A stretch of DNA of 63,146 bases, the filler included, from Rhabdomonas costata (taxonomy: Eukaryota): assembly GCA_019059605.1 (NCBI GenBank). It is 40 parts of 40 records of this genome, joined end to end, with 100 filler letters (N's around TTAATTAATTAA, not from the genome) between each part and the next. Parts side by side here need not be neighbours in the genome. Positions count along the whole stretch, not along the records: positions 18,983 to 20,463 come from JAHMHO010014824.1; 39 more parts are not named here. The stretch is one strand, 5' to 3'. A program made the translations under genes and the position numbers. The notes below the pieces were generated by a model. That model was not told the origin of the DNA, searched no databases, and worked only from the letters and a program-made list of their open reading frames with translations. How positions within the stretch are numbered: position 1 is the first letter of the stretch; every line of letters begins with the position of its first letter. Shown piece by piece: positions 18,401-63,146 of the stretch.

Positions 18401-19035
18401 GTCATTTTGCATGACTCGAAAACATGTCCGAGAGGTACCTGGACGTTTTTTGTTGGTAACAAGCGCTGGAAGACAACCATGCCATGTCATGGTGAGCCCT
18501 TTCATCCGGAAGTAAAACCAGATGTTCATGTGCTTCACAAATTGCAGCACATAAGCCTGTAAAACCTGGCGGCTCATGGCGGTGTGATCCATCTTGCGCC
18601 ATCCTAGCCCAGTCCCTGTGCTGCCTTGACATAGTTGCTGAGAATGGCATGCCACTGATGCAAAAACCTGTCGCACACCATGTTGGACGTGCCAACTTCA
18701 GGTTCTGGGTGTTTTGTGTAAAAGTTTGTGTAGAGCAGGAAATTGCACGTGCGGAGGAGTAGTTGACATGCATATTTGTGGGCGAAATTGAACTTCAGGA
18801 AGTGCCTGTTCCTTGGTGGAGATCGTAGCCACTTGAATTATTTGATGCCACTACAAAGACCAATCTTTCCGCGAGGCGCCAANNNNNNNNNNNNNNNNNN
18901 NNNNNNNNNNNNNNNNNNNNNNNNNNTTAATTAATTAANNNNNNNNNNNNNNNNNNNNNNNNNNNNNNNNNNNNNNNNNNNNGGTTGGGGGTGTTTGTAT
19001 CCAGTGTCTTGGAGTGGACGATGGGGTGTGCATCT

Positions 19036-19962
19036 GAGGAAGCATTCGAAGACCTGAGAATGCTGACGTCGGAGTGAACGAACGGACCGACCTATGTCGG
19101 GGAGTGAGTGAACCACGCATTTAGGAGGGAGGAACGAAGTGACGACCGACAGCAATCAACTCCCCTTGCGGGCCCCATGACCATGAGCGCAGCGAATGGG
19201 CATGGGGATCAAGGCATCTTTGAGTTCTGCATTTAGGAGGAGATGCGACGAAGGAGCATCGACGACAGCAAGAACCCCACGAAGGCATGTCGAGGGTACC
19301 GAGGCATGCCGTAGTAGCGTATTCCACTGTCGGGATTCTCACGTCCTCTCGAATCCCTCATTCTTCTCTAGCACCGCAGGTAGGGTGAGCGTAACCGTGA
19401 AGCGGTGGAGCGAGCCATCAACAGAGGAAGCATTCGAGGCACCGAGAATGCTGACGTCGTGTGACCCAGTGAACGGAAGCACCTTAGGGTGGTGAAGTGA
19501 ACCACACGTAGAGGAGGGACTCGAGGTACCGAGAGTCACGACGTCATCAAGAGGAGGAACGTACCGACGTCAGTCGGGGAGTGACGACGACCAGCAAATA
19601 CTCCTCTTCTGAGTTCAGTGAACGTAGCCGGGTAGCGGCGGAGTGAACCACCATGCAGAGGAAGGATGCGAGGTACCGAGCATCCTGACGTCATTCAAAG
19701 AGGAACATGAGACATGACCGGAACGCAGTGAAGGGAATGTCGATTGTGACGTCGGAGGAACATGAGCGAGTGCAACGAAGCGATTGTGACGACCAAGGAA
19801 CGAGGAAGGAGCGTAGCGACGACCGAGAGACAGAACTCCAATGAATACCCCTACCCTTGATGAGAGACACGAACAGGAGGCACGAACAACGTGAGAGCCG
19901 AGTGTGAGAGTCGAACCTACCGAGGAACAGGAGACACGAGCATCGCGAGAGTCGAGTGTGAC
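19036..19962 (+). other. Array of about 20 covarying GA-mismatch/GNA-loop hairpins (structured single-stranded nucleic acid element)
   Basis: Repeated GAGGA-[stem]-GA-loop-GA-[stem']-GACGTC and GT-GA-AC-GNA-[stem]-loop-[stem']-GNA-GT-GA-AC modules. Stem sequences differ between copies but stay complementary; see findings. Confidence 0.85.
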
Positions 19963-22703
19963 ACTGTGACTCAGCTTGGCATCGCGGTTCTGTCCCTGCG
20001 GGGCCCTTACCCTTACACTCAACCCCACCACTATAGCCCTTAGACCATCGGAGTGTGGACGTGATGCTTTACCTTGATGCTGATGCGGTGTTGTCGGGGT
20101 GTTGGACTGCGCAAGGACTGACACACCGGTAAGAGTGATGCCCTGACACCGTACCACCACCACCAACGCTACCACCACCAACAGCAAGGCAAGCACAGAA
20201 CGCGTAGACCATTACTAATAGGGTAACACACCCTACGTTGATGGCATACAGGCCCTGTGTCCAACCTCGAAGCAGAGGGATAGGGTGTAGCATGTGTGTT
20301 ATGTGTAAGGTAAGAACGTAGAGGGTGGAACCAAGTGGAAGGGTCGGTACGCCCAAGCAGCAAGGAACCCGTCACCTCTAACGCCAACCCTACACATAGC
20401 CACCACGTGACTGTCTACTAACTGGGCAACCAAGCCCCAACGTTGGACAACCGCACCAAACAANNNNNNNNNNNNNNNNNNNNNNNNNNNNNNNNNNNNN
20501 NNNNNNNTTAATTAATTAANNNNNNNNNNNNNNNNNNNNNNNNNNNNNNNNNNNNNNNNNNNNTGGTGTACTTTTTTGGGCGGGAATTTAGACGGCTCCC
20601 AGCTGCCACGGTATACGGCTTTAACGTTCAAAATTTGTAGTTAACCACCTCAACGCCCCAACCTTTTTTTTTGGGAAGGCGCAGCTTACTGAGTATTCTC
20701 CTTCCGAAGTGTTTTAGGGGAGGGGTTGAGAAATCGCGAGAATTTTCAGAGTCGAGAGACAGAGAGAGAGAATACGACCGAATTCATTATATTGTCGACA
20801 TACGGGATTTGGTATGAATAGTTGACCCGCTAACGATCTGAAGTTCGGCGTGTGACTGCCAAACCTGCAGCCTGGCCACTGACCTTCCCGGTTGGTTTTC
20901 CGGAAGGCGCCCCGCATTCCGCACTCCTTTGACGGCCGTTGGGCGCTGCCGCGGCTTACCTAGGAAAAAATCTGGTACCTGGCTTTTGATTACCGTCCGC
21001 CGCCTTTCGCGGCCCGGGGGGGTTCCTTCGCGACTCCCGCTTTTTCTCGGTGACCTCGCGGTTGTGATTCTTTCTCCTCCTGCAGTAAAGGCACTCCTCA
21101 TTTCAGAAACCGAATCTCCTTCGGTCAAGCATCATCCCTTGCCCGGAAACAAAGGCCCCCACAACACTTACTTTCACCCACATTTTCCCCCTAACGAAAT
21201 TCCCTTTTTGGCCAAATGACCGTTCTGGCCATTCCCCTTGACCATTGCTACTGTCTTTTCCCTGCACAACACCCGCTGCCTTTTTCGTGCTTTATTCCCG
21301 CCTTTGGTTTCCTTTTGTACCGCTTTTCCCCCGCGGACCTTTTGGTCACTTGACCCTACCGGCTTGTTTTTAAATTTTACAAAACTAAAGGAAATTAAGT
21401 ATCCGTAAACCGGGCCCTGAGCCCAGTACGAGGTTCGGGGGCCCGAGCCCTCTCGAGTCGAGTCGAGTCGAGAAGAGAAGAGAAGAAAGCGTTGTTGCCA
21501 CAAGGGCGGAGATAAATCCTGTAGGTCTGTTGGTGGGTCTTCGGAATGAAGATGAAGAAGCGGTGCATTTGGATAAAGCCAGTGCCGAAATGGGAGCAGC
21601 TGGATGGGAAGAAAGTGGAGAACGAAGGCGAAGCAAGAGCAAGCACTTCTGACCGAGGTAAGTCGGGAAAAAGCACAACTCGAGTATATAACACCCTGCC
21701 CGGCAGAAAATCAAAGCGATAGAGGAAAATGGTAGAGAAGGCCGAACCGGAGAGAGAGAAGGCAAGAGATTGAAAGCTGTTTACCTATTTTACAGGTTAC
21801 AGCTAAAAGCTCGGCGGGGCGAGGCTAAAGCGAGGTAGAGGCGAGTCAGGGCTAAAAAGGTTGAGAGCTGAACCTTCTCACTTTCCCCTGTGCTGTGCTC
21901 TGGTGCCGTTCCCTTCTTGTTTGCCTTGTTTTTGGGTTGGAAGGGCGTAAGCGGACGGCTGGGTAGAGGCAAGACCTCCAGGACCCCACCTCCCAGCGGA
22001 ACACTCAAAAGCAAAGGCCTTTGAAACGAGCAGCCAACAAAACCCNNNNNNNNNNNNNNNNNNNNNNNNNNNNNNNNNNNNNNNNNNNNTTAATTAATTA
22101 ANNNNNNNNNNNNNNNNNNNNNNNNNNNNNNNNNNNNNNNNNNNNGGTGTGTGGGACTGCAGCGTTGGGTTCGTTTTGGTTTGAGGTGGCGAATTTCATA
22201 TTCTTCAATTGCGTTCGTTTTTGTTGACTTTTTGGAGGTTTGCCGAGCAAAAGAAATTGCTTTGGTTTTGAACTACTCAGTTTTGAACTTCGATCATCCC
22301 CACGATTGCTCTCCAGATTGGTTTCTGATTGTTTCTCACTGCCATTCCCCAGAAACGTCAGGCGTTTGCAATCATTCTGGGTGTCCTGTCTTCCCGAGCT
22401 CTAATCCCCTTGCACGAGGGCAAGATGCCGGATGGGGGCTAACGGGGGTACCCCTTCCCATCCGGCTCACAGCGGTATGTGCCAGCCTGCTTAGAAGCCA
22501 GCTGGATCATAACGTACCAATATATCTCCGATATCTCTCAAGTGTTGGACGAAATGGTCGCTGGCTGACAAGTCCATTTTTTTGCGATATCTTCGGCTTT
22601 GAATGGACGACATTGCCTGTGTACCTGTGTGTTCTTTGAAGCCTGCTTTTCTTTCGCTGGGCCATTTGTTCTCTCCGGGTCGGTTTCCTTCTTTTCCGTG
22701 CAA

Positions 22704-33075: not shown

Positions 33076-33510
33076 CCCACGCTTTCCGAACATCAAGACC
33101 AAACACCCAACACATNNNNNNNNNNNNNNNNNNNNNNNNNNNNNNNNNNNNNNNNNNNNTTAATTAATTAANNNNNNNNNNNNNNNNNNNNNNNNNNNNN
33201 NNNNNNNNNNNNNNNGGGGTCTTGGCTCCCTGAAAATGACTGCGGATGGTTCGTGAGAAGAAGACCTGCATGGAGCAAGCAGGATGCGCGGAAGTGCCAG
33301 AACATTGGCAGGATAAGAAGAGGGGATTAAAAGAAGATTGTTCAGAAGGGGCATAAGGCATAGCGAGGCGGTGCGGGGGTCGGGGGCGAGGGAAATAAGA
33401 AGGAGACCCAAGCACAAGAGAGGAACAGCAAGAGCCGGATCGTCGGTGGTGGTATGCCACTGAGTCTCACAGCGTTTTTTCTGCTGGGAATGCAATGCAG
33501 GGCACCACAC

Positions 33511-33665
33511 CAAGTCGTTGACCCTCCCGAAGACGTCGTCGATCTTCCCGATCAGGGCCTTGTCCTTGGTCCACACCCCGGCGTTGAAGTGGGGGATCTC
33601 CACGGGCTTCATGGTGACCTGCGCCACGATGAGGTCCTCACAGGGGTGCAGGAAGGACCCCAGCA
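33511..33665 (-). CDS. GAR1: H/ACA snoRNP subunit GAR1 (internal exon)
   Basis: LGSFLHPCEDLIVAQVTMKPVEIPHFNAGVWTKDKALIGKIDDVFGRVNDL matches the Gar1/Naf1 core; AG/GT bounded. Confidence 0.88.
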
Positions 33666-34879
33666 CTGAGATGGCAACCGGAGACAAGAAACTTGTTGAC
33701 TCCAAGGGCCATATGCAGACTGTATGAATGCTCGAAAAACCAGGGTTGAAGCAAAGCTAAGGTAAAATGAGGCAGCATCTCGACTGGGTTTATGTCTTGG
33801 ATTTCCTTCCCTGTGAAGTCACCGCTGTAGGAAACTGTCAAGCGGCGATTATTGGTCATCTCCTGGGTGGGTGAGATAAACGTATCCATGGCGATACTAC
33901 GTTTATGGATCGCAATAGTGCATGCATTGGTATGGTATGGCATGGTGTGGCTTCACAAGAAAAGTACATTTTGATGTGCAATCAAGAAACATGTCAAACA
34001 GAAACGCACCGAAGCAACGAGGAGAATAGATGTCCCATTTCAAATGTTCATTAAATGTTCATTTTCCCTTATTTTTCGCTATCAAGTCCGAAAAGATCGC
34101 TTTAGCAACACTTTTCTCAGTTCTGTGTTTTGAAGTGAAGAGGGCAATGTAATTATGGATCACAACAGCATAGTACCGTATGACAGGATATTGGTCAATG
34201 CGGCACGGTACGGTATGCACACGCTACATTGCCATGACCTTTCTCGGCGCGGTGGCGTGTGGCAATTTAGCATCCTTCAGCAGGGGTGTGACACTGACAT
34301 TGAATCTGGGTGTGTAATGGGAAAGGAAAGGCCACGGTATGGGTTTGATGAGGTCGCCTTGCATCGTGCCGTGCTTTCAGCCTAGACTCCACCGAGATGA
34401 TACATGGGCGGACAGTGGGGTGAGTTGAGAGCCAAAGCCCTCTGTCCTTGTGCCTGCGATTCGAGAGATGCGCTTGAGATGGGGTCAAAGGCATCGGATG
34501 CACAAGGGAATGCCAAAGTTAACTTAGCGAAGGCCTATGGGGTGAAGCTGCACTGCCGCAGTTTCGACCGTTCCGTTGCCTTCAAGGAAGCTCAGGGAAA
34601 GGAGCTGTGAGCGCTATGGTGCGTTTTGGAGAGGAGAGTGGGGGCTGACCCTTCATATTTTCCGGTGTGGGCTCAGGGCCACGAAACCCACCCACCNNNN
34701 NNNNNNNNNNNNNNNNNNNNNNNNNNNNNNNNNNNNNNNNTTAATTAATTAANNNNNNNNNNNNNNNNNNNNNNNNNNNNNNNNNNNNNNNNNNNNTTTG
34801 TTGGGGAGTCGGCAAAACCTCTGCCCCGTCCACCAAAGTTTTTGCCGACTCCGCAACTTCCATTGCTTCTTCATTGGAA

Positions 34880-36270: not shown

Positions 36271-36411
36271 CCCCCCCNNNNNNNNNNNNNNNNNNNNNNN
36301 NNNNNNNNNNNNNNNNNNNNNTTAATTAATTAANNNNNNNNNNNNNNNNNNNNNNNNNNNNNNNNNNNNNNNNNNNNTGGGGTGTGTTTGGGTGGGGGGG
36401 GTGGCGCTAAC

Positions 36412-48612: not shown

Positions 48613-49151
48613 ACCCCCCCCACACAACCACCACTCTCATCCTTCCTCCTCCTTTCACCTGCGTGACGAATCCAAGGAAACGTGCCCGCGAGCTCGAAGG
48701 AAGATCCCACTATGAACTGTTCTGGCGGGCCTCCTGCTCTGCCGTTGGGCTCCACCAGCTGTCTCGTTAGTTCTACTTTGCGAATTCATTGTGGCTTGCT
48801 GGGGGTTGGATACCTGCTTCGGTGCCGCGAATTGAAAGCGCACGAGGAAATCCCGGGTTGATGTCCCGTTGCATAGCCTCACGGTTGCCCTTTGACCCCC
48901 AAACCCACCCAAACACACCCACAANNNNNNNNNNNNNNNNNNNNNNNNNNNNNNNNNNNNNNNNNNNNTTAATTAATTAANNNNNNNNNNNNNNNNNNNN
49001 NNNNNNNNNNNNNNNNNNNNNNNNTAGAAGGCACGGTTTCGTTTGTTCGTTTTTCTCTTCTTCTTTTTGGATTTCACGGGGCAGGGATTCATAAAACGAG
49101 GTGCAGCCATGCGAAAATTTGGGTTGCCCCCCCCCTCACTTTGTTTTGCAG

Positions 49152-50605: not shown

Positions 50606-51553
50606 GGGGGTTGGGGGTGGATCTGCGGCGAAGTGCTTCAGTCTGCAGGCCCTCAACGACCCCCGGCTGAAGGCCCTGCCCTGCTCCATCCGAGTGCTGC
50701 TGGAGAACGCGATCCGGAATTGCGACGAGTTCAGCGTCACCGCGGCTGACGTGGAGCGCATCGCCAACTGGGCCACCACGGCAACCAAGGTACGCTCGTT
50801 TGTCGTTGAAGCGGGGGGCAGTGGTTGTGTTGTCAACAGGTAAAGTGTCTAAAAGCGTCTAGAAAAAATATTGCTGTTTTGATTGAATTGAAAAGGTTAG
50901 ATAGGTGATGTCAGTGCTCTTGAAAATGATTTCTTTTGATGCCAGGGGGGTTGAGCTGTGGCAATGTTCCTTTGTATTTTGGCTTAGGACTTCAAACAAT
51001 TGCTTGCTAAGGACCTGCCTGTTGCTGGGATTTGGGCGGATGAGTGGGACAGCACTATTCGAGGCGCAAAGGCCAGCGCCGCGGAGGCCATGCCGAAACG
51101 GGCGCCTGGAACGGGATCGTTTTCTGGTGAGCTCTTAGCGAGTGTTTTGATGCATGGTCCAATGGAGAAAGCGTCCTACGGATTTGAACAGGTTTCCTCG
51201 GGTAGCCTTTACCCCCACCCCACCCCGCTAACGTGAGTTGCAGCTCAGGGTGCGGTGATGGGTTCTCTGACAAGAGAATAAGCTAATTGAGGCAGAGGGT
51301 GTCTCAGGGCCACGCGCCGAGCATGTTCTCTGTTTATGGGGCATGGGTTCAGCTGTGCTTCTGCACTTGCGCTTCTGCAGGTCATCTTTCGGCTGAGTTG
51401 GGAGCGCTTTTGCTTGGGTTGCCCTCAGGCTTCTTTTGCTGTGGTCTCTCTTGTGTGTGTTGCGTTTGGCTGTTGATCCGGTCTTGCAGGTTGAAATCCC
51501 CTTCAAGCCTGCCCGTGTGGTGCTTCAGGACTACGCGGGGCTTGCGGCCATCG
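50606..51553 (+). CDS. ACO1: Aconitase A / IRP family, N-terminal part (2 exons)
   Basis: 50606-50789 reads [34 protein letters not shown]; 51490-51553 reads [25 protein letters not shown] phase-0 intron. Confidence 0.9.
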
Positions 51554-57665: not shown

Positions 57666-60084
57666 GCAAAGGCTTCCAGTGGTCCAGAATCCGAGTGCGG
57701 TGTCTTGGCAAAATGATATTTCTCATATGCAGCCTCCTCCATCATGAAGATGTGTTTGCATGACCGAGCGCGTGTTTGTGTCGTGTTGATACATGTCTGT
57801 GGGAAGGGTAACATTGTACGTCCCGCTGTGGTGCTTGGTATGGTTCTTGACCTATGGTTTTGGTGGCAATGATGTGCCTTGTTGCTGATCTCGGGTCTCA
57901 TTCGAGCGGAAATCCCCCAAAACTGACATGGATGAGAACTAAGTGCAAACCGGCGTCCATCCTTTCTAACTTCTTCCAGGCCACAGCACCCGGGCGGCAA
58001 TCACTCCGAGACGTGCTTTACAGCAGGTTATAGTAGAAACCATGCAATCCCCCGCCGTTTCAAAGCATCCTTGCCGCGCATTCCTAACGCTAACACGCAG
58101 TTACCTTCCCACCACAAAAGGCAGTGTGCCAAGACATCAACTTCATCACTGTTGCCAGCACGCGCAATAGGCGTGACCTCATTTCCGGTTCGTCGCCGTG
58201 GGGAAGAAAGGGGGGCTGCCACAAAATATAAATGATTAAAATAAGACTGGAATTTGTGTGGGATGAGCATGTGACATGTGTTTGTGTGTTATTGGTTTCC
58301 GCGCTGGAAGTGGCGCGGGTTTCCCTTGTCCGCCGAAAGCGCCGAACATTCGCGGAATGAAAATGAGGATGTGCAAGTCAGAAAGCGTGCGCAAAAAAAC
58401 CACNNNNNNNNNNNNNNNNNNNNNNNNNNNNNNNNNNNNNNNNNNNNTTAATTAATTAANNNNNNNNNNNNNNNNNNNNNNNNNNNNNNNNNNNNNNNNN
58501 NNNGTGGTGGGTGTGTTTGGTGGTGGTGGGGACAGCAGCCACGTGCCGCGAGCTCAATTCAAAAAATCTTCTCAAGTGCAATGCAATTTTTTGTCACTCC
58601 CACATTCCCTCTCCTGTTTCAGTTTTTGTGTTTACATTTGTGTTTGTGTTTTACAGCCTTTGTTTCTTTTTTTTTTACCTAGTTTTCCCTTACAGATCTC
58701 TCTCGCGTTCCTTCTTGTAATTGTTTGCATTGATGTTAGATGGTGTTGCACCATCGACGCTGGGCACCACAGGTCCGAGTACACCAAGTGGCCACCGTTG
58801 CAGCTGGAAGCTGCCAGTGTGCTATTGTCGACGTGGAAGAGGAGAGAGAGTCAAGACTGTGGGGGACCTACCGCTCAACCCAGCTGCCGTCCGCCCACCT
58901 GTGTGCCATTTTTAGGGCTTCCTGAGGCTTCTATCAATTTGCTCCGGAACATGGTGTTCATGTGCTTGAAGAGACACATGAGGTTTTTTGTTGGAGGACA
59001 AGCCTACAGCGCGGTTTTGAACGTCATCAGACCTTAACGTTTAACACAAGTACGTCGTCTGCTTTGCTGAAGCCTGCACAGCGCTCACTCTTACCTTCTG
59101 CTGTGGAGCAATGATGTTTAACTTTTTTTTAAAGTACCCAAAAAAGTACCCAGTCTCGGCATTCGATTAGGGAACTGGTTAGCGCGAGTGTTGATAAGAA
59201 TGGCAGGCATCATCAACTGTCGATGCTGTATGCTTGCTCTTGAGCGTGTGTTAGTATACAGTTCCTGGACGAATGCTCGACCCACTCTTTCACCAGGGGT
59301 TTGGGCTTCATCACATCATGTATAAGTGTGCATATGCGTGTTATATAACATAGTAGTGGTAGTCTGTGTCGAAGCCCGGTGGGTTCCGACTGGGCGCCGT
59401 CGGGGCAGAGCGTGCACTGCACGACTGGGGGGGGGGGAAGGCGGTGATGACGGAGGGAAGGCTCTGTCCTGCTCGCCCAGGCTCGGGCCACCAGCGAAGG
59501 GCGAAGTGGCGCAAAGATGCCCTTCGCCCATTTACAAATCACGTCACACCCAACAGAGCTAGTTCACAACGGCTTCCGCCAATGCACACAAATAGGAAGA
59601 CCTCCAACTGTCCCAGAAATCCTGTGGTATGCGTTGCCGACTAGCGGGAGGCCCGTTTGTCTGACCTTAGGAGCCTGTGTTCCGTAAACCCACGCGGAAA
59701 TTCCGATGCCCTTGCGATTCTGAGGCCAGTTCTGAGAGATGCGCCTTCATTGTATGCGTGCACTCAGAGCGACGCCCCCACCCAGGGATGCGCATCCAGT
59801 GTCAGAGAGAGTGTCCACAAGACAAAGGCCACAAACGCATAACCCAGAAGCCAAAAATAAATACCTACACCCACAAGTCCACGTTCAGTTATATTCACAG
59901 CACTAAGGCCATTACCAATACGTACGCACAATACAGAAGCCTTCACTCAGTCCACATCCTATACCCTTACTCACACAACACAAANNNNNNNNNNNNNNNN
60001 NNNNNNNNNNNNNNNNNNNNNNNNNNNNTTAATTAATTAANNNNNNNNNNNNNNNNNNNNNNNNNNNNNNNNNNNNNNNNNNNN

Positions 60085-61333
60085 TACGACCCGCAGTGCC
60101 CCTTTGTGAGCTTCAAGAAAGTGATCCGGGACATGGCCTCCCCGGTGGAGCTGGTGAGCTTCCACTCCGTGAGCAAGGGCATCATGGGGGAGTGCGGGCT
60201 GCGCGGAGGTTGGGCGTTTCTCTCTGGCGTTCGGCGCTCGAAGGGGGTTTTACACCTCTCAAAAGAAAAACCGTGGGTATTCTTTTCCGCGGAATGGAGC
60301 CGGCAGTATATGTATGACCAGCATTGCGGCGAGAACGCAGTGGGTTGTTGATGCGGGGATGGTGTCTGGTTGTGAATTTTTTGTTTCATCCGTGAGTGGC
60401 AAGCGACAGACATGTGGGGCCTCCATCCAAATAGCCTTTCCTACCTCACCCTTTAAAAACACTCACATCTAACAACTCGCAAAGCCCTGAGCCGGACCTC
60501 CCTTAGCGATGACGTTCTCTGGAAACGGGCTCTGAGTGTCGAAGTATGGGTGTCACTCCATAAGAACTCTTCCCTCTGGCTGTCCCTTCTAAGTGCTTGT
60601 GGGGTCCATCTTTCGCAGGGTACATGGAGCTGGTGAACTTCCTTCCCGAGGTTCTGGAGCAGGTGTACAAGACGGTCTCCGTGGAGCTGTGCTCGAACGT
60701 CCCTGGGCAGATTGTGGTGGAGCTGATGGTGAACCCACCAAAGCCAGGCCCTCATCCACCCGACAGACCTCTTTTCCAAATCCCAGAGTAGGCCAAGACA
60801 CGAGTGTGGTCTTTTTAGGGTAGTGCGCAGCGTTTAACGGAGTAGAGCGAGCTGATAAAAAAAGAAGCTTGAAAAGGTTTCCCTCTGGCTTCTTTGTGTT
60901 TCGGAGTTCCTGTGCTCTTTGAATTTTGTAGATCGAGACCGTCATTGGTGGGTTCCCCACTGCTTGTGCCCTCGTTTGCTATGGTTCATCCAAGCTTGCA
61001 GTGATTAAGGGCTGGGGGGTGCGACGATTCAAGCGAACCTTCAAGAAAAGAAGAATCCCCATCTAAAGCAATGCCAGCGTTTGCAATCTCTGGAGTTCTG
61101 CTTTAGCTGCATGGTGTTAGCGGCGGATGAGCAGGTATTCTTTTGCACTTCCAACAGGCGAGCCGTCACACGCGCAGTGGAAGGCGGAGTTCGACGCGGT
61201 GTACAGCTCCCTGGCGCGCAAGGCCGAAAAGCTGTGCAAGGGCCTGGCGCAGCTGGAGGGCGTGAGCTGCAACCTCAGCGTGGGTGCTATGTACGCATTT
61301 CCGAAGATCTCCTTGGGGCTCCGACAAATCAAG
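60085..61333 (+). CDS. GPT: Alanine aminotransferase (partial, 3 exons)
   Basis: Exons 60085-60208 ([24 protein letters not shown] lysine), 60619-60747 ([22 protein letters not shown]) and 61158-61333 ([25 protein letters not shown]). The second intron is GC-AG. Confidence 0.95.
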
Positions 61334-62347: not shown

Positions 62348-63107
62348 CAAGTGGCCCTTCACGGTGCTGCTGCGGACGGCGACCACATCGATGTTCAGGC
62401 GATAGAGCTGGCTGACCACAAACGACTCCAGGTCGGGGTCCACCCAAGACCCGGTCCAGGCCACATGCACTGTGGCGTTCGGTCGCGCTGCCACCGCACC
62501 AAGAATCCATGCAGAGACCTAAACGCAAGAAAGAGGAATTCAATGGCTACCAATATGCTAGGGGTCCTGCTCTTAAAAACATCTCTGCATAAAAACAAGC
62601 GGAATGGGAGGATGGGAAAACTCAACACTTGATTTGGAAAGGCCAATATATGCAGCAAGAAAAGGGCAACCCACAGGATGCGTTGTTCTGAGAAAAGAAA
62701 GCAGCGGACAGAAAAGACGGATAAAACGGATTAAACGGAAAAGACGGTTAGAACCAACAGCACAAACCCAAAAGGCCAAGAAAAGAAATCCAGAGTGTTG
62801 AAAGCGAGAGGGGGGGGCGAGGTTGGCGATGGAGCCGGGCACGGTGGAAGCAAAACTACACCTGCCGGTATGTCTCAGGGATCGGCACCGGACCTAGCAC
62901 CCCAAGCACTCCCGTCTGCGACGATAGCGCAGCGGCGTACCCCGCTAGGTACATCGGCTGGTACAGCCGAGTGTACCCCACCCCGAAGTTCGGCGTCGCC
63001 GTCTTCCACCCCGAAATGTGCAGGAATATGGTGTTGGGGTACTGCGCCGCCGCTTCGATCATGCAGTCCTGGTAGCCAAAGCTGCAGCCCACAACTAGGT
63101 CAAAGCC
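62348..63107 (-). CDS. BMP/PnrA (basic membrane protein) family solute-binding domain (partial, 2 exons)
   Basis: Exons 63107-62862 (GFDLVVGCSFGYQD..AAQYPNTIFLHISG..YQPMYLAGYAA..GVLG..PIPE) and 62518-62348 (VSAWILGA..RPNATVHVAWTGSWVDPDLE). GT-AG phase-0 intron. Confidence 0.88.
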
Positions 63108-63146
63108 CTGTACAGTAGCGGAAAGAAAGAGAGAAAACACACAACC

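Follow-up and report, generated by a model that had tools for sequence, protein, structure and literature searches.

The window, that is the whole stretch of 63,146 nucleotides of Rhabdomonas costata DNA analysed here, consists of 40 contigs joined end to end. The thirteenth (contig 13) contains a non-coding, purine-rich zone of degenerate, hierarchically duplicated repeats and hairpins (Table 1). This array of about 930 bp is restricted to the one contig. GC skew is positive across most of positions 18983-19980, where the + strand is G-rich and purine-rich; an inverted copy of the repeat (19324-19363) occupies the only pyrimidine-rich stretch of this strand, where the skew reverses. The contig starts with about 16 nt of G and T only and ends with 10 nt of A and C only. 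On the primer description given in the available part of PMC10781638, these ends are primer-derived. An amplification artefact was rejected as the origin of the array, since primer-like sequence is found at the contig ends only and the internal repeats are not G/T-only.

None of the nine ORFs of contig 13 reached a Pfam cut-off, the best score being obtained for DUF4641 (E=0.034, 13.7 bits versus a cut-off of 27). Among 30 further long ORFs of the other contigs, a Gar1/Naf1 domain alone passed (E=3.3e-13), ObR_Ig and PRMT5 remaining below their cut-offs. Two exon-like matches were found on other contigs, one to IRP1/aconitase (E=5e-11) and one to alanine aminotransferase (E=7e-11), and in both cases the similarity ends at a GT. 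The other contigs have the appearance of ordinary nuclear DNA containing introns, and the array appears to sit in DNA of nuclear type, in a eukaryote with introns. Rfam 15 gave no match at gathering in the window. When the contig was searched at E up to 10, mir-598 (18.2 bits versus 69) and mascRNA (15 versus 42.5) were returned; both are chance matches at 20076-20167, outside the zone.

The repeat unit of about 85 nt consists of two hairpin types, H2 then H1, and is nested within larger units of about 390 nt. Copies are 65-73% identical and irregularly spaced (388, 87 and 147 nt). TRF detected no regular array over 19033-19860, its sole report being a 13-nt x1.9 repeat at 19864-19888. The duplications are hierarchical and include a deletion variant as well as the inverted unit. 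The repeat model R1 retrieved eight copies with E<1 in contig 13 and none with E<1 in the other 39 contigs; likewise, the three occurrences of the word CGAGGYACCGAG are all in contig 13. Flanking words fixed between copies are GAGGA, GGYACC, YGACGTC and GTGAAC. GACGTC is found six times and TGACG seven times in 971 nt, and TGACGTC occurs four times on the + strand and three times on the − strand of contig 13 (13 times in the whole window).

Table 1. Position and main characteristics of the features of contig 13, in window coordinates.
Feature	Position	Strand	Characteristics
Contig 13 of 40 joined	18983..20463	.	1481 bp
Repeat and hairpin zone	19033..19961	+	non-coding, purine-rich, degenerate, hierarchically duplicated
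H1a	19036..19070	+	GAGGA, 7-bp stem, tandem GA, A-T pair, loop GACC, tandem GA, stem, TGACGTC; family D1; 55.6 bits
H2a	19074..19113	+	GTGAAC ... GTGAAC rod; 18 positions: 11 Watson-Crick, 6 G·A, 1 G·G
H3a	19124..19150	+	GGAGG-GA-G-GA-AC-GAA-GT-GA-C-GA-CC; C-GAA-G cap (19135-39); 12 pairs, 3 GA blocks; family D2
Hairpin	19173..19207	+	CCCCATG.CCAT-GA-GC-GCA-GC-GA-ATGG.CATGGGG; cap 19187-93; I7; z -4.05 RNA, -4.03 DNA
H1e, diverged H1	19236..19266	+	C-GAA-G cap (19249-53); 14 pairs including 3 tandem-GA blocks; 24 bits, E=1.2e-4
H1f, diverged H1	19284..19310	+	GG-GTA-CC cap (19294-300); 12.2 bits, E=0.34, weak
Inverted H1-like copy	19324..19363	−	20.5 bits, E=1.2e-3; inverted repeat I1
H2d	19384..19416	+	GTGAGC ... 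GCGAGC variant; GAA loop; three G·T positions
H1b	19424..19458	+	H1a architecture with CGAG/CGAG block, loop GCAC; 59.9 bits
H2b	19469..19502	+	
H1c	19511..19545	+	stem GACTC/GAGTC; 58.1 bits
H1 copy without central stem-loop	19551..19576	+	19.7 bits; then CCGAC-GTCA-GTCGG hairpin (19564-19577)
H2c	19618..19648	+	13 positions: 8 Watson-Crick, 4 G·A, 1 G·T
H1d	19658..19692	+	stem GGATGC/GCATCC; 61.0 bits
Hairpin	19711..19741	+	GACAT-GA-CC-GGA-AC-GCA-GT-GAA-GG-GA-ATGTC; cap 19723-29; z -2.29 RNA, +0.13 DNA
H3c, H3a paralogue	19803..19823	+	family D2, 82%; GC-GTA-GC cap (19811-17); weak hairpin, z -0.06 RNA, -0.75 DNA

Folding of the + strand can yield about 15 short hairpins, built of runs of one to seven Watson-Crick pairs separated by symmetric tandem G·A steps, with 5'-GA-3' facing 5'-GA-3'; 3x3 GNA/GNA loops also occur. 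Using a definition of this hairpin class that was chosen after seeing the data, a scan of the + strand at 19000-19970 recovered 10 hairpins, versus 1.52±1.26 in 300 dinucleotide and 1.89±1.30 in 300 trinucleotide shuffles (maximum 7). The same scan found none on the − strand of the zone and, over both strands of each of the other 39 contigs (78 strands), a mean of 0.55 (maximum 3). An initial annotation of this DNA had implied that the + strand is the one that folds, and the count of 10 versus 0 supports this asymmetry. A period-3 or (NGA)n artefact was rejected as the source of GA opposite GA: the counts of GA in the three phases are 43, 46 and 47, and sequences shuffled by triplet blocks gave 1.1-1.3 hairpins versus 10. 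No K-turn or box C/D element was found, as there is no asymmetric 3-nt bulge, every G·A step is symmetric (2x2 or 3x3) with Watson-Crick pairs on either side, and no Rfam snoRNA matched.

Y-GA-R context, which had been put forward in favor of sheared pairs, does not help here. It is found in 14 of the 34 strand contexts of tandem G·A blocks, a share equal to that of all GA in the zone (50/136). Mixed context (R-GA-R/Y-GA-Y), the stability of which is uncertain in either polymer, accounts for 10 of 17 blocks. Exact CGAG/CGAG blocks are present in four of the 10 scanned hairpins (H1b, H1c, H1d and H1f), and the CGAG word itself is not enriched (11 versus 8.4 in dinucleotide and 11.9 in trinucleotide shuffles).

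Comparison between copies gave more information on these folds. Across the four H1 copies, 35 of 36 pair cells are paired and five of nine pairs have changed on both sides. None of 500 shuffles reached this paired share or the covariation score, and slid controls were 22-50% paired, with 0-1 doubly changed pairs. Neither tandem-GA block varies among the four copies. The inner stems of H2 differ in all four copies yet all pair (CCGAC/GTCGG, CACC/GGTG, GCCG/CGGC and ACCGT/GCGGT); these H2 pairs come from a direct reading of the sequences by script, as their MAFFT alignment was too gappy for pair counting. The outer GTGAAC/GTGAAC is replaced by GTGAGC/GCGAGC in H2d, and the G·A steps are retained in 4/4 H2 copies. 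Since the four H1 copies are paralogues at one locus, their apparent covariation could result from arm-to-arm templated mutation instead of selection.

We tentatively favor an array that would have formed by repeated local duplication and whose + strand fold would be under constraint, most likely as an RNA platform for a hairpin-binding protein. The + strand would fold as a transcript, which might be a repeat-containing non-coding RNA, an intron or a spacer, and its reiterated hairpins would offer a multivalent platform to such a protein. As the H1-like unit at 19324-19363 is inverted, a + strand transcript would carry the antisense of this unit.

It is possible, if doubtful, that the array has no function at all and arose, much as a minisatellite does, through local duplication, inversion and slippage, the hairpin potential of one strand driving or accompanying instability. 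Complementarity could then be renewed without selection by template switching from arm to arm (quasi-palindrome correction), a mechanism to which we give the same doubtful standing. The confinement of the R1 family and of CGAGGYACCGAG to contig 13 is consistent with such a neutral origin, as are the hierarchical duplications with their deletion variant and inverted unit. The stability of the whole zone also agrees with it: global folding was not above shuffles (z -1.48 on the + strand and 0.03 on the − strand, 20 shuffles each), and local-span folding of the + strand gave z -1.13 as RNA and -0.32 as DNA. Finally, searches by pattern found no relatives in viral, metagenome or genome contigs. 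The strict H1 pattern had no match in viral contigs and none in metagenome contigs; its single match in genome contigs comes from a MAG of Acidobacteriota, where it falls within an ORF of 437 aa and belongs to no repeat, and was dismissed as chance. A looser pattern matched at least 120 metagenome loci, and among the 119 matches listed none has more than two complementary stem bases (98 with none, 18 with one and 3 with two), so that all are attributed to chance. However, template switching should convert GA/GA mismatches to Watson-Crick pairs, and these blocks are invariant in 4/4 H1 and kept in 4/4 H2 copies. Moreover, five doubly changed pairs with 1/36 cells unpaired is a lot for drift, and the − strand lacks the hairpin class, of which the other contigs hold few examples.

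The nature of the polymer had been addressed in the initial annotation through the loops of positions 19124-19820, said to point to DNA rather than RNA. The eight GNA caps that it listed are all present: CGAAG at 19135-39 and 19249-53, GCGCAGC at 19187-93, GGGTACC at 19294-300, ACCGCAGGT at 19373-81, ACGCAGT at 19723-29, GTGCAAC at 19770-76 and GCGTAGC at 19811-17. Five of them (19135, 19187, 19249, 19294 and 19723) lie on supported hairpins (8-14 pairs counting tandem G·A, or MFE). The cap at 19811 stands atop a 5-pair hairpin no better than shuffles, and those at 19373 and 19770 belong to isolated minis of 3 bp and 2 bp, absent from the MFE.

Loops were counted over this 697-nt region against 2000 dinucleotide-preserving and 2000 trinucleotide-preserving shuffles, statistics that ignore the kinship of several of the counted GNA motifs, which are paralogous copies. 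GNA with at least one Watson-Crick closing pair occurs 30 times, versus 14.5±3.5 in dinucleotide shuffles (0/2000 reach 30) and 21.9±3.9 in trinucleotide shuffles (P=0.025). With at least two closing pairs, the count is 12 versus 3.6±1.9 (P=0.002) and 5.1±2.2 (P=0.0055), respectively. The excess of closed GNA is real, about two-fold. Much of it is composition, because the GNA trinucleotide itself is over-represented (85 versus 58.5±5.3). That the caps are mostly closed by C-G holds for the listed set (6/8) but not for the unbiased set of 30 (C-G 13, G-C 11, A-T 5 and T-A 1). C-GNA-G was counted 13 times versus 5.6±2.2 in dinucleotide shuffles (P=0.002), becoming marginal once trinucleotides are preserved (8.35±2.44, P=0.058), and 7 of the 13 lie at a hairpin apex with at least two further pairs. 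G-GNA-C is enriched as much (11 versus 3.9 expected), mostly through the recurring words GGAAC and GGTAC; thus, the GNA excess tracks repeat content and not selection for a stable DNA mini-hairpin. UUCG and clear GNRA caps are indeed lacking, as had been noticed: closed TNCG loops number 0, and the only GNRA with at least two pairs is AA-GCGA-TT at 19780. GNRA with at least one closing pair is depleted (4 versus 10.2 in dinucleotide and 9.6 in trinucleotide shuffles, P<=0.029).

Fifteen hairpins, also chosen after seeing the data, were scored with nearest-neighbour parameters. The mean z was -2.50 with RNA parameters (9/15 below -2) and -1.78 with DNA parameters (Mathews-2004; 6/15 below -2), a comparison that is not decisive because the DNA set includes no bonus for sheared G·A or GNA. 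G·T wobble positions are present in H2c, H2d and H1f. In eukaryotic nuclear DNA, a single-strand fold that is under constraint usually belongs to RNA. It is on these z values, on the wobbles and on this prior that we lean towards RNA, and the RNA reading rests on the prior. The enrichment of C-G-closed GNA and the depletion of closed GNRA (P about 0.03) argue against it and lean mildly to a DNA fold. The whole-zone folding values, no better than shuffles, the inverted H1-like unit and the lack of any Rfam match count against the RNA reading as well.

A functional + strand of single-stranded DNA is unlikely. Such a strand could arise as the non-template strand displaced in an R-loop, as the template for lagging-strand synthesis, or as a product of rolling-circle replication or reverse transcription; its G·A-zipped hairpins with C-GNA-G caps would then, with the same low probability, be formed by DNA and recognised by a protein. 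G-rich, purine-rich composition, as found on this strand, favours R-loops that leave such a strand displaced. The pairing grammar also fits motifs characterised in DNA, namely C-G-closed d(GNA) loops (available parts of PMC5815330 and PMC3201870) and CGAG blocks (available part of PMC10085684), the latter exact in the four hairpins named above. The first two sources, as far as their available text goes, describe the d(GNA) triloop closed by a C-G pair as the DNA counterpart of the GNRA tetraloop, and on this point the background of the initial annotation was right. The C-GNA-G excess over dinucleotide shuffles and the scarcity of closed GNRA and TNCG loops favor this view too, and GNA caps are found on 7 of about 16 hairpins. 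However, the equally enriched G-GNA-C form has no special DNA stability; the available text of PMC3201870 sets it against the stable C-G-closed form. Only one of the eight hairpins best supported by covariation (H1 x4, H2 x4) has a GNA cap, the GAA of H2d, closed by T·G. The 15 hairpins fold at least as well under RNA parameters and, to our knowledge, every motif invoked for single-stranded DNA has an RNA counterpart too. Contig 13 encodes no Rep/HUH, RT or other gene (Pfam, 9 ORFs), within 1.48 kb beyond which such a gene could lie, and blastn gave no match among 50,697 phage and 72,556 plasmid records. The ordinary nuclear appearance of the neighbouring contigs is a further point against it. 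The loop vocabulary, judged from the sequence, is not diagnostic, and one cannot tell DNA from RNA by the loops.

We consider it quite unlikely that selection, at a eukaryotic nuclear locus, maintains the ability of the purine-rich strand of the units to form G·A-zipped DNA hairpins, and that a hairpin-binding protein reads these. The units would fold on an R-loop-displaced strand, or at an exposed origin or centromere-like site. In the favored RNA reading, a GA-rich pairing grammar would naturally end in C-GNA-G or G-GNA-C and so give GNA triloops, which would not identify the polymer.

A role of the array as duplex DNA (promoter, enhancer or spacer sub-repeats), in which the conserved words would be protein-binding sites and the hairpins incidental, is improbable. 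The recurrence of GACGTC, TGACG and TGACGTC, the latter on both strands, would suit it, and conservation within the units is highest in the conserved words. GACGTC/TGACGTC presumably resembles bZIP (CRE/C-box) sites, and GAGGAA ETS-type cores. Duplex sites would account for these words, but not for stems that are doubly changed yet complementary, and they leave the strand-specific G·A symmetry without explanation.

Protein coding, whether by the + strand (an acidic repeat protein) or by a 198-aa stop-free frame on the − strand, is close to refuted. In its favor, the spacings between three of the H1 copies (87 and 147 nt) are multiples of 3, and these copies give similar peptides (EEAFEAPRMLTS, EEGLEVPRVTTS and EEGCEVPSILTS). 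However, six-frame translation finds no frame open across the zone, with stops in every + frame between H1 copies and H1a in a different frame, GA placement lacks period-3, no ORF has a Pfam family, the pyrimidine-rich strand that carries the − frame is stop-poor by composition, and phmmer of this frame against 1.84 billion proteins gave one match (E=1.9e-4), consisting of eight stretches of a 2680-aa protein and read as low complexity.

The hairpins of the array resemble several known systems. The C-GNA-G loop of d(GCGNAGC)-type mini-hairpins, as presented in the available parts of PMC3201870 and PMC5815330, occurs 13 times in 697 nt. Unlike in these mini-hairpins, G-C-closed GNA is equally enriched in the array, and most caps extend into G·A-interrupted stems instead of a 2-bp GC stem. 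The CGAG-rich region of the human AUTS2 promoter forms DNA hairpins stabilised by G:C and sheared G:A pairs, according to the available part of PMC10085684. As described there, C-GA-G opposite C-GA-G with G:C flanks corresponds to the inner block of H1b, H1c, H1d and H1f, and the purine-rich strand carries hairpins with G:C plus G:A pairs, which in the array are predicted from sequence. The AUTS2 element, in the same part of that source, is a simple CGAG repeat with one loop, studied in vitro as DNA, whereas the array has single blocks within diverse covarying stems in about 15 hairpins. Moreover, 10 of 17 array blocks are GGAG/CGAC or GGAA/TGAC and not CGAG, and consecutive CGAG repeats on both arms were not found.

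The G-strand of the purine-rich, centromeric dodeca-satellite of Drosophila reportedly folds back through tandem G·A pairs, and the array would share with it a strand-specific purine-rich fold-back, C-GA-G steps and a GTAC-containing core. Unlike homogeneous high-copy satellites, the array is not regular for TRF over 19033-19860, its copies are 65-73% alike and its stems covary. The Xist A-repeat and the NORAD repeat units are diverged units with a short conserved hairpin and conserved single-stranded words. The array likewise has several diverged units, each with a conserved hairpin and words, which provides a functional analogy for the RNA reading. The putative transcript has no sequence or Rfam relationship to these RNAs, and they lack its G·A-rich pairing grammar.

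G·A-stabilised hairpins (GNA triloops, CGAG blocks and purine-rich satellites) are well studied in vitro, and evidence for their evolutionary maintenance is thin. On a single 1.48-kb contig of amplified DNA, the array is for now a curiosity and not a system. With about 15 such hairpins at one locus, stems doubly changed and G·A steps fixed, it would offer a clean test of both selection and polymer. If the hairpins were indeed selected as DNA, C-GNA-G caps and CGAG blocks would be a natural, evolving code of single-stranded DNA rather than an in-vitro curiosity.

The GNA-cap feature lies entirely inside contig 13 (18983-20463). The window joins 40 contigs of 1475-1484 bp each through linkers of the form N44-TTAATTAATTAA-N44 (for example 18883-18982). 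The contigs are separate and do not form one locus; sequence across a linker provides no genomic context. Within contig 13, the zone 19033-19961 is non-coding, has a purine-rich plus strand and consists of diverged repeats, which a repeat search resolved into 21 direct-repeat families and which TRF missed.

Three hairpin modules, H1, H2 and H3, recur in this zone (see table). H1 is ordered as GAGGA, stem, tandem GA, a G-C pair, a 4-nt loop, tandem GA, stem and YGACGTC. A covariance model trained on its four strong copies was run over all 40 contigs; it found the other H1 units of the zone and no match with E<1 on the other 39 contigs. The inverted unit is the sole reversed one and sits in the only pyrimidine-rich plus-strand stretch of the array. 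The GTGAAC flanks of H2 can pair with each other once G·A is allowed; in the copy at 19618, 13 positions comprise 8 Watson-Crick, 4 G·A and 1 G·T pairs. H2 and H1 units alternate every 82-87 nt or so, this distance widening to about 150 nt where further sequence lies between them, and the full H2/H1 pattern repeats at about 390 nt.

Shorter words were also observed. A stretch of 971 nt holds 6 copies of the palindromic GACGTC and 7 of TGACG; we presume a likeness of these words to bZIP (CRE/C-box) sites. A conserved word of repeat family D6, GACGAC(C)..CAGCAA..N..ACTCC, lies 3' of hairpins of the H3 type or of the diverged H1 type with a C-GAA-G cap, and its ACTCC is able to pair with an upstream GGAG(T), giving an alternative outer stem. 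A C-rich word with the pattern CCYTGCGGGSCCC is found close to both array ends. Downstream of the array, a short ACC-rich run (family D3) has a period of 3, with 9.3 copies and 76% matches.

Features of the array and of other contigs in the window (positions along the whole window).
Feature	Position	Strand	Remark
H1, strong copies	19036, 19424, 19511, 19658
H1, diverged copy	19237		covariance model, E=1.2e-4
H1, diverged copy	19281		covariance model, E=0.34
H1, copy without stem-loop	19551		covariance model
H1-like inverted unit	19324-19363	-	covariance model, E=1.2e-3
H2 copies	19074, 19384, 19469, 19618		rods, GTGAAC at either side
H3 copies	19124, 19803		GGAGG-type words opposite CGACGAC-type words, C-GNA-G cap between
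GACGTC sites	19064-19070, 19452-19458, 19539-19545, 19568-19573, 19686-19692, 19747-19753
D6 word	19141-19168, 19258-19278, 19583-19606, 19818-19842
C-rich word	19163-19177, 19994-20006
ACC-rich run	20153-20194
Primer-like contig ends, examples	36378-36404, 58504-58531, 48895-48924, 18983-18998
Gar1/Naf1 domain	33216-33756	-	E=3.3e-13
IRP1/cytoplasmic aconitase-like exon	50622-50790	+	residues 18-70 matched, E=5e-11
Alanine-aminotransferase-like exon	60085-60210	+	residues 282-328 matched, E=7e-11
Bmp/PnrA-like substrate-binding protein fragment	62859-63146	-	E=2e-15

Hairpins of at least 7 pairs (Watson-Crick or G·T, GA/GA interruptions allowed) were counted under a definition set after the data had been seen. 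The plus strand of 19000-19970 contained 10, against 1.52±1.26 in dinucleotide and 1.89±1.30 in trinucleotide shuffles (300 each, maximum 7), 1.1-1.3 in triplet-block shuffles and a mean of 0.55 (maximum 3) in 78 strands of other contigs; the minus strand of the same interval contained none. No period-3 placement of GA was found in the zone. Across the four H1 copies, 35 of the 36 pair cells are paired, five of the nine pairs are altered at both sides and both G·A blocks are unchanged. Neither the paired share nor the covariation score was matched by any of 500 shuffles, and slid registers gave 22-50% pairing. The four H2 inner stems all differ from one another and are all complementary. By contrast, nearest-neighbour folding of the whole zone was no better than that of shuffles (global z -1.48 for the plus and 0.03 for the minus strand). 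At a span of 50, the local z of the plus strand was -1.13 as RNA and -0.32 as DNA, and the minus strand folded more poorly than its own shuffles. The caps are part of a real, strand-specific hairpin array, apparently under constraint.

The eight cap motifs listed by the initial annotation were all found where it had placed them; five are on supportable hairpins, one is on a weak hairpin and two are isolated 2-3-bp mini-hairpins. In 19124-19820, 30 GNA triplets have one or more closing Watson-Crick pairs and 12 have two or more, against 14.5±3.5 and 3.6±1.9 (P=0.002), respectively, in 2000 dinucleotide shuffles. Because GNA itself is over-represented (85 versus 58.5 expected), trinucleotide-preserving shuffles were added, giving 21.9±3.9 (P=0.025) and 5.1±2.2 (P=0.0055). 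The excess of closed GNA is real and about two-fold, with paralogous copies accounting for part of it. The initial annotation had seen no UUCG or clear GNRA caps; closed GNRA loops are depleted, numbering 4 versus 10.2 (dinucleotide) or 9.6 (trinucleotide, P≤0.029), and closed TNCG loops are absent (0 versus 2.0 in shuffles). Closure mostly by C-G applies to the eight motifs (6/8) but not to the unbiased count of 30 (C-G 13, G-C 11, A-T 5, T-A 1).

No relatives were found in viral, metagenome or prokaryotic genome contigs. The strict H1 pattern matched no viral or metagenome contig, and its one match in prokaryotic genomes was judged to be chance. A looser pattern gave at least 119 matches across at least 120 metagenome loci, and among the matches listed no stem was present. 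Among known systems, the array comes nearest to CGAG-block DNA hairpins, to GNA mini-hairpins and to fold-back satellites rich in purines; unlike all of these, it is degenerate and contains many hairpins that differ from one another and covary.

Contig starts carry G/T-only runs and contig ends A/C-only runs, with a modal length of exactly 10 and of 10, respectively; runs of at least 10 bases open 27 of the 40 contigs and close 25. In contigs 24 and 38, a 12-mer from a universal amplification primer survives ahead of a G/T run. Passages in PMC10781638 describe the primer 5'-TGTGTTGGGTGTGTTTGGKKKKKKKKKKNN-3' (K10NN type) in single-cell whole-genome amplification, and variants appear in passages of PMC6961581 and PMC10168098. 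The contig ends are non-biological: about 12 bases at either end of each contig derive from primer and are not to be read biologically, for instance as telomere-like repeats. Primer remnants and end runs together indicate low-input amplified DNA as the assembly source. The Gar1/Naf1 domain and the two exons, in both of which similarity stops at a GT, read as a donor site, speak for genomic DNA from a eukaryote with introns. The Bmp/PnrA-like fragment belongs to a family typical of bacteria; contamination or transfer may explain its presence. No Pfam family exceeded its own cut-off in 29 of the 30 long ORFs tested on other contigs.

Neutral repeat dynamics, in which templating renews the stems, is a rather doubtful account of the array. 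That the folded molecule is plus-strand ssDNA, as initially proposed from the caps, appears unlikely. The background invoked is sound: passages in PMC5815330 and PMC3201870 present the C-G-closed d(GNA) triloop as the DNA analogue of the GNRA tetraloop. Likewise, CGAG blocks (G:C plus sheared G:A) stabilise DNA hairpins according to a passage in PMC10085684, and exact CGAG/CGAG blocks are present in H1. The mild depletion of closed GNRA and the enrichment of C-G-closed GNA lean towards DNA, perhaps with a likelihood ratio of 2-3, to be set against a prior favouring RNA. However, G-GNA-C, which lacks special DNA stability and is represented by the repeat words GGAAC and GGTAC, is enriched equally with C-GNA-G, and the latter is marginal under trinucleotide shuffles (P=0.058). 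Only one of the eight covariation-supported hairpins (four H1, four H2) bears a GNA cap, and the Y-GA-R context of G·A blocks is not enriched (14/34 versus 50/136 for all GA). The hairpins stand out under RNA parameters no less than under DNA parameters: 15 hairpins, chosen post hoc, had a mean z of -2.50 as RNA (9/15 below -2) versus -1.78 as DNA (6/15), the DNA parameters giving no bonus to G·A or GNA. In RNA, where they have been studied, tandem G·A and 3x3 purine loops are commonplace, and contig 13 displays no sign of a rolling-circle or reverse-transcription system. For these reasons, DNA rather than RNA does not follow from the loops. An array of binding sites in duplex DNA is improbable, and protein-coding sequence can be dismissed almost entirely. 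We tentatively favour a plus-strand transcript that would serve as a platform of reiterated hairpins.
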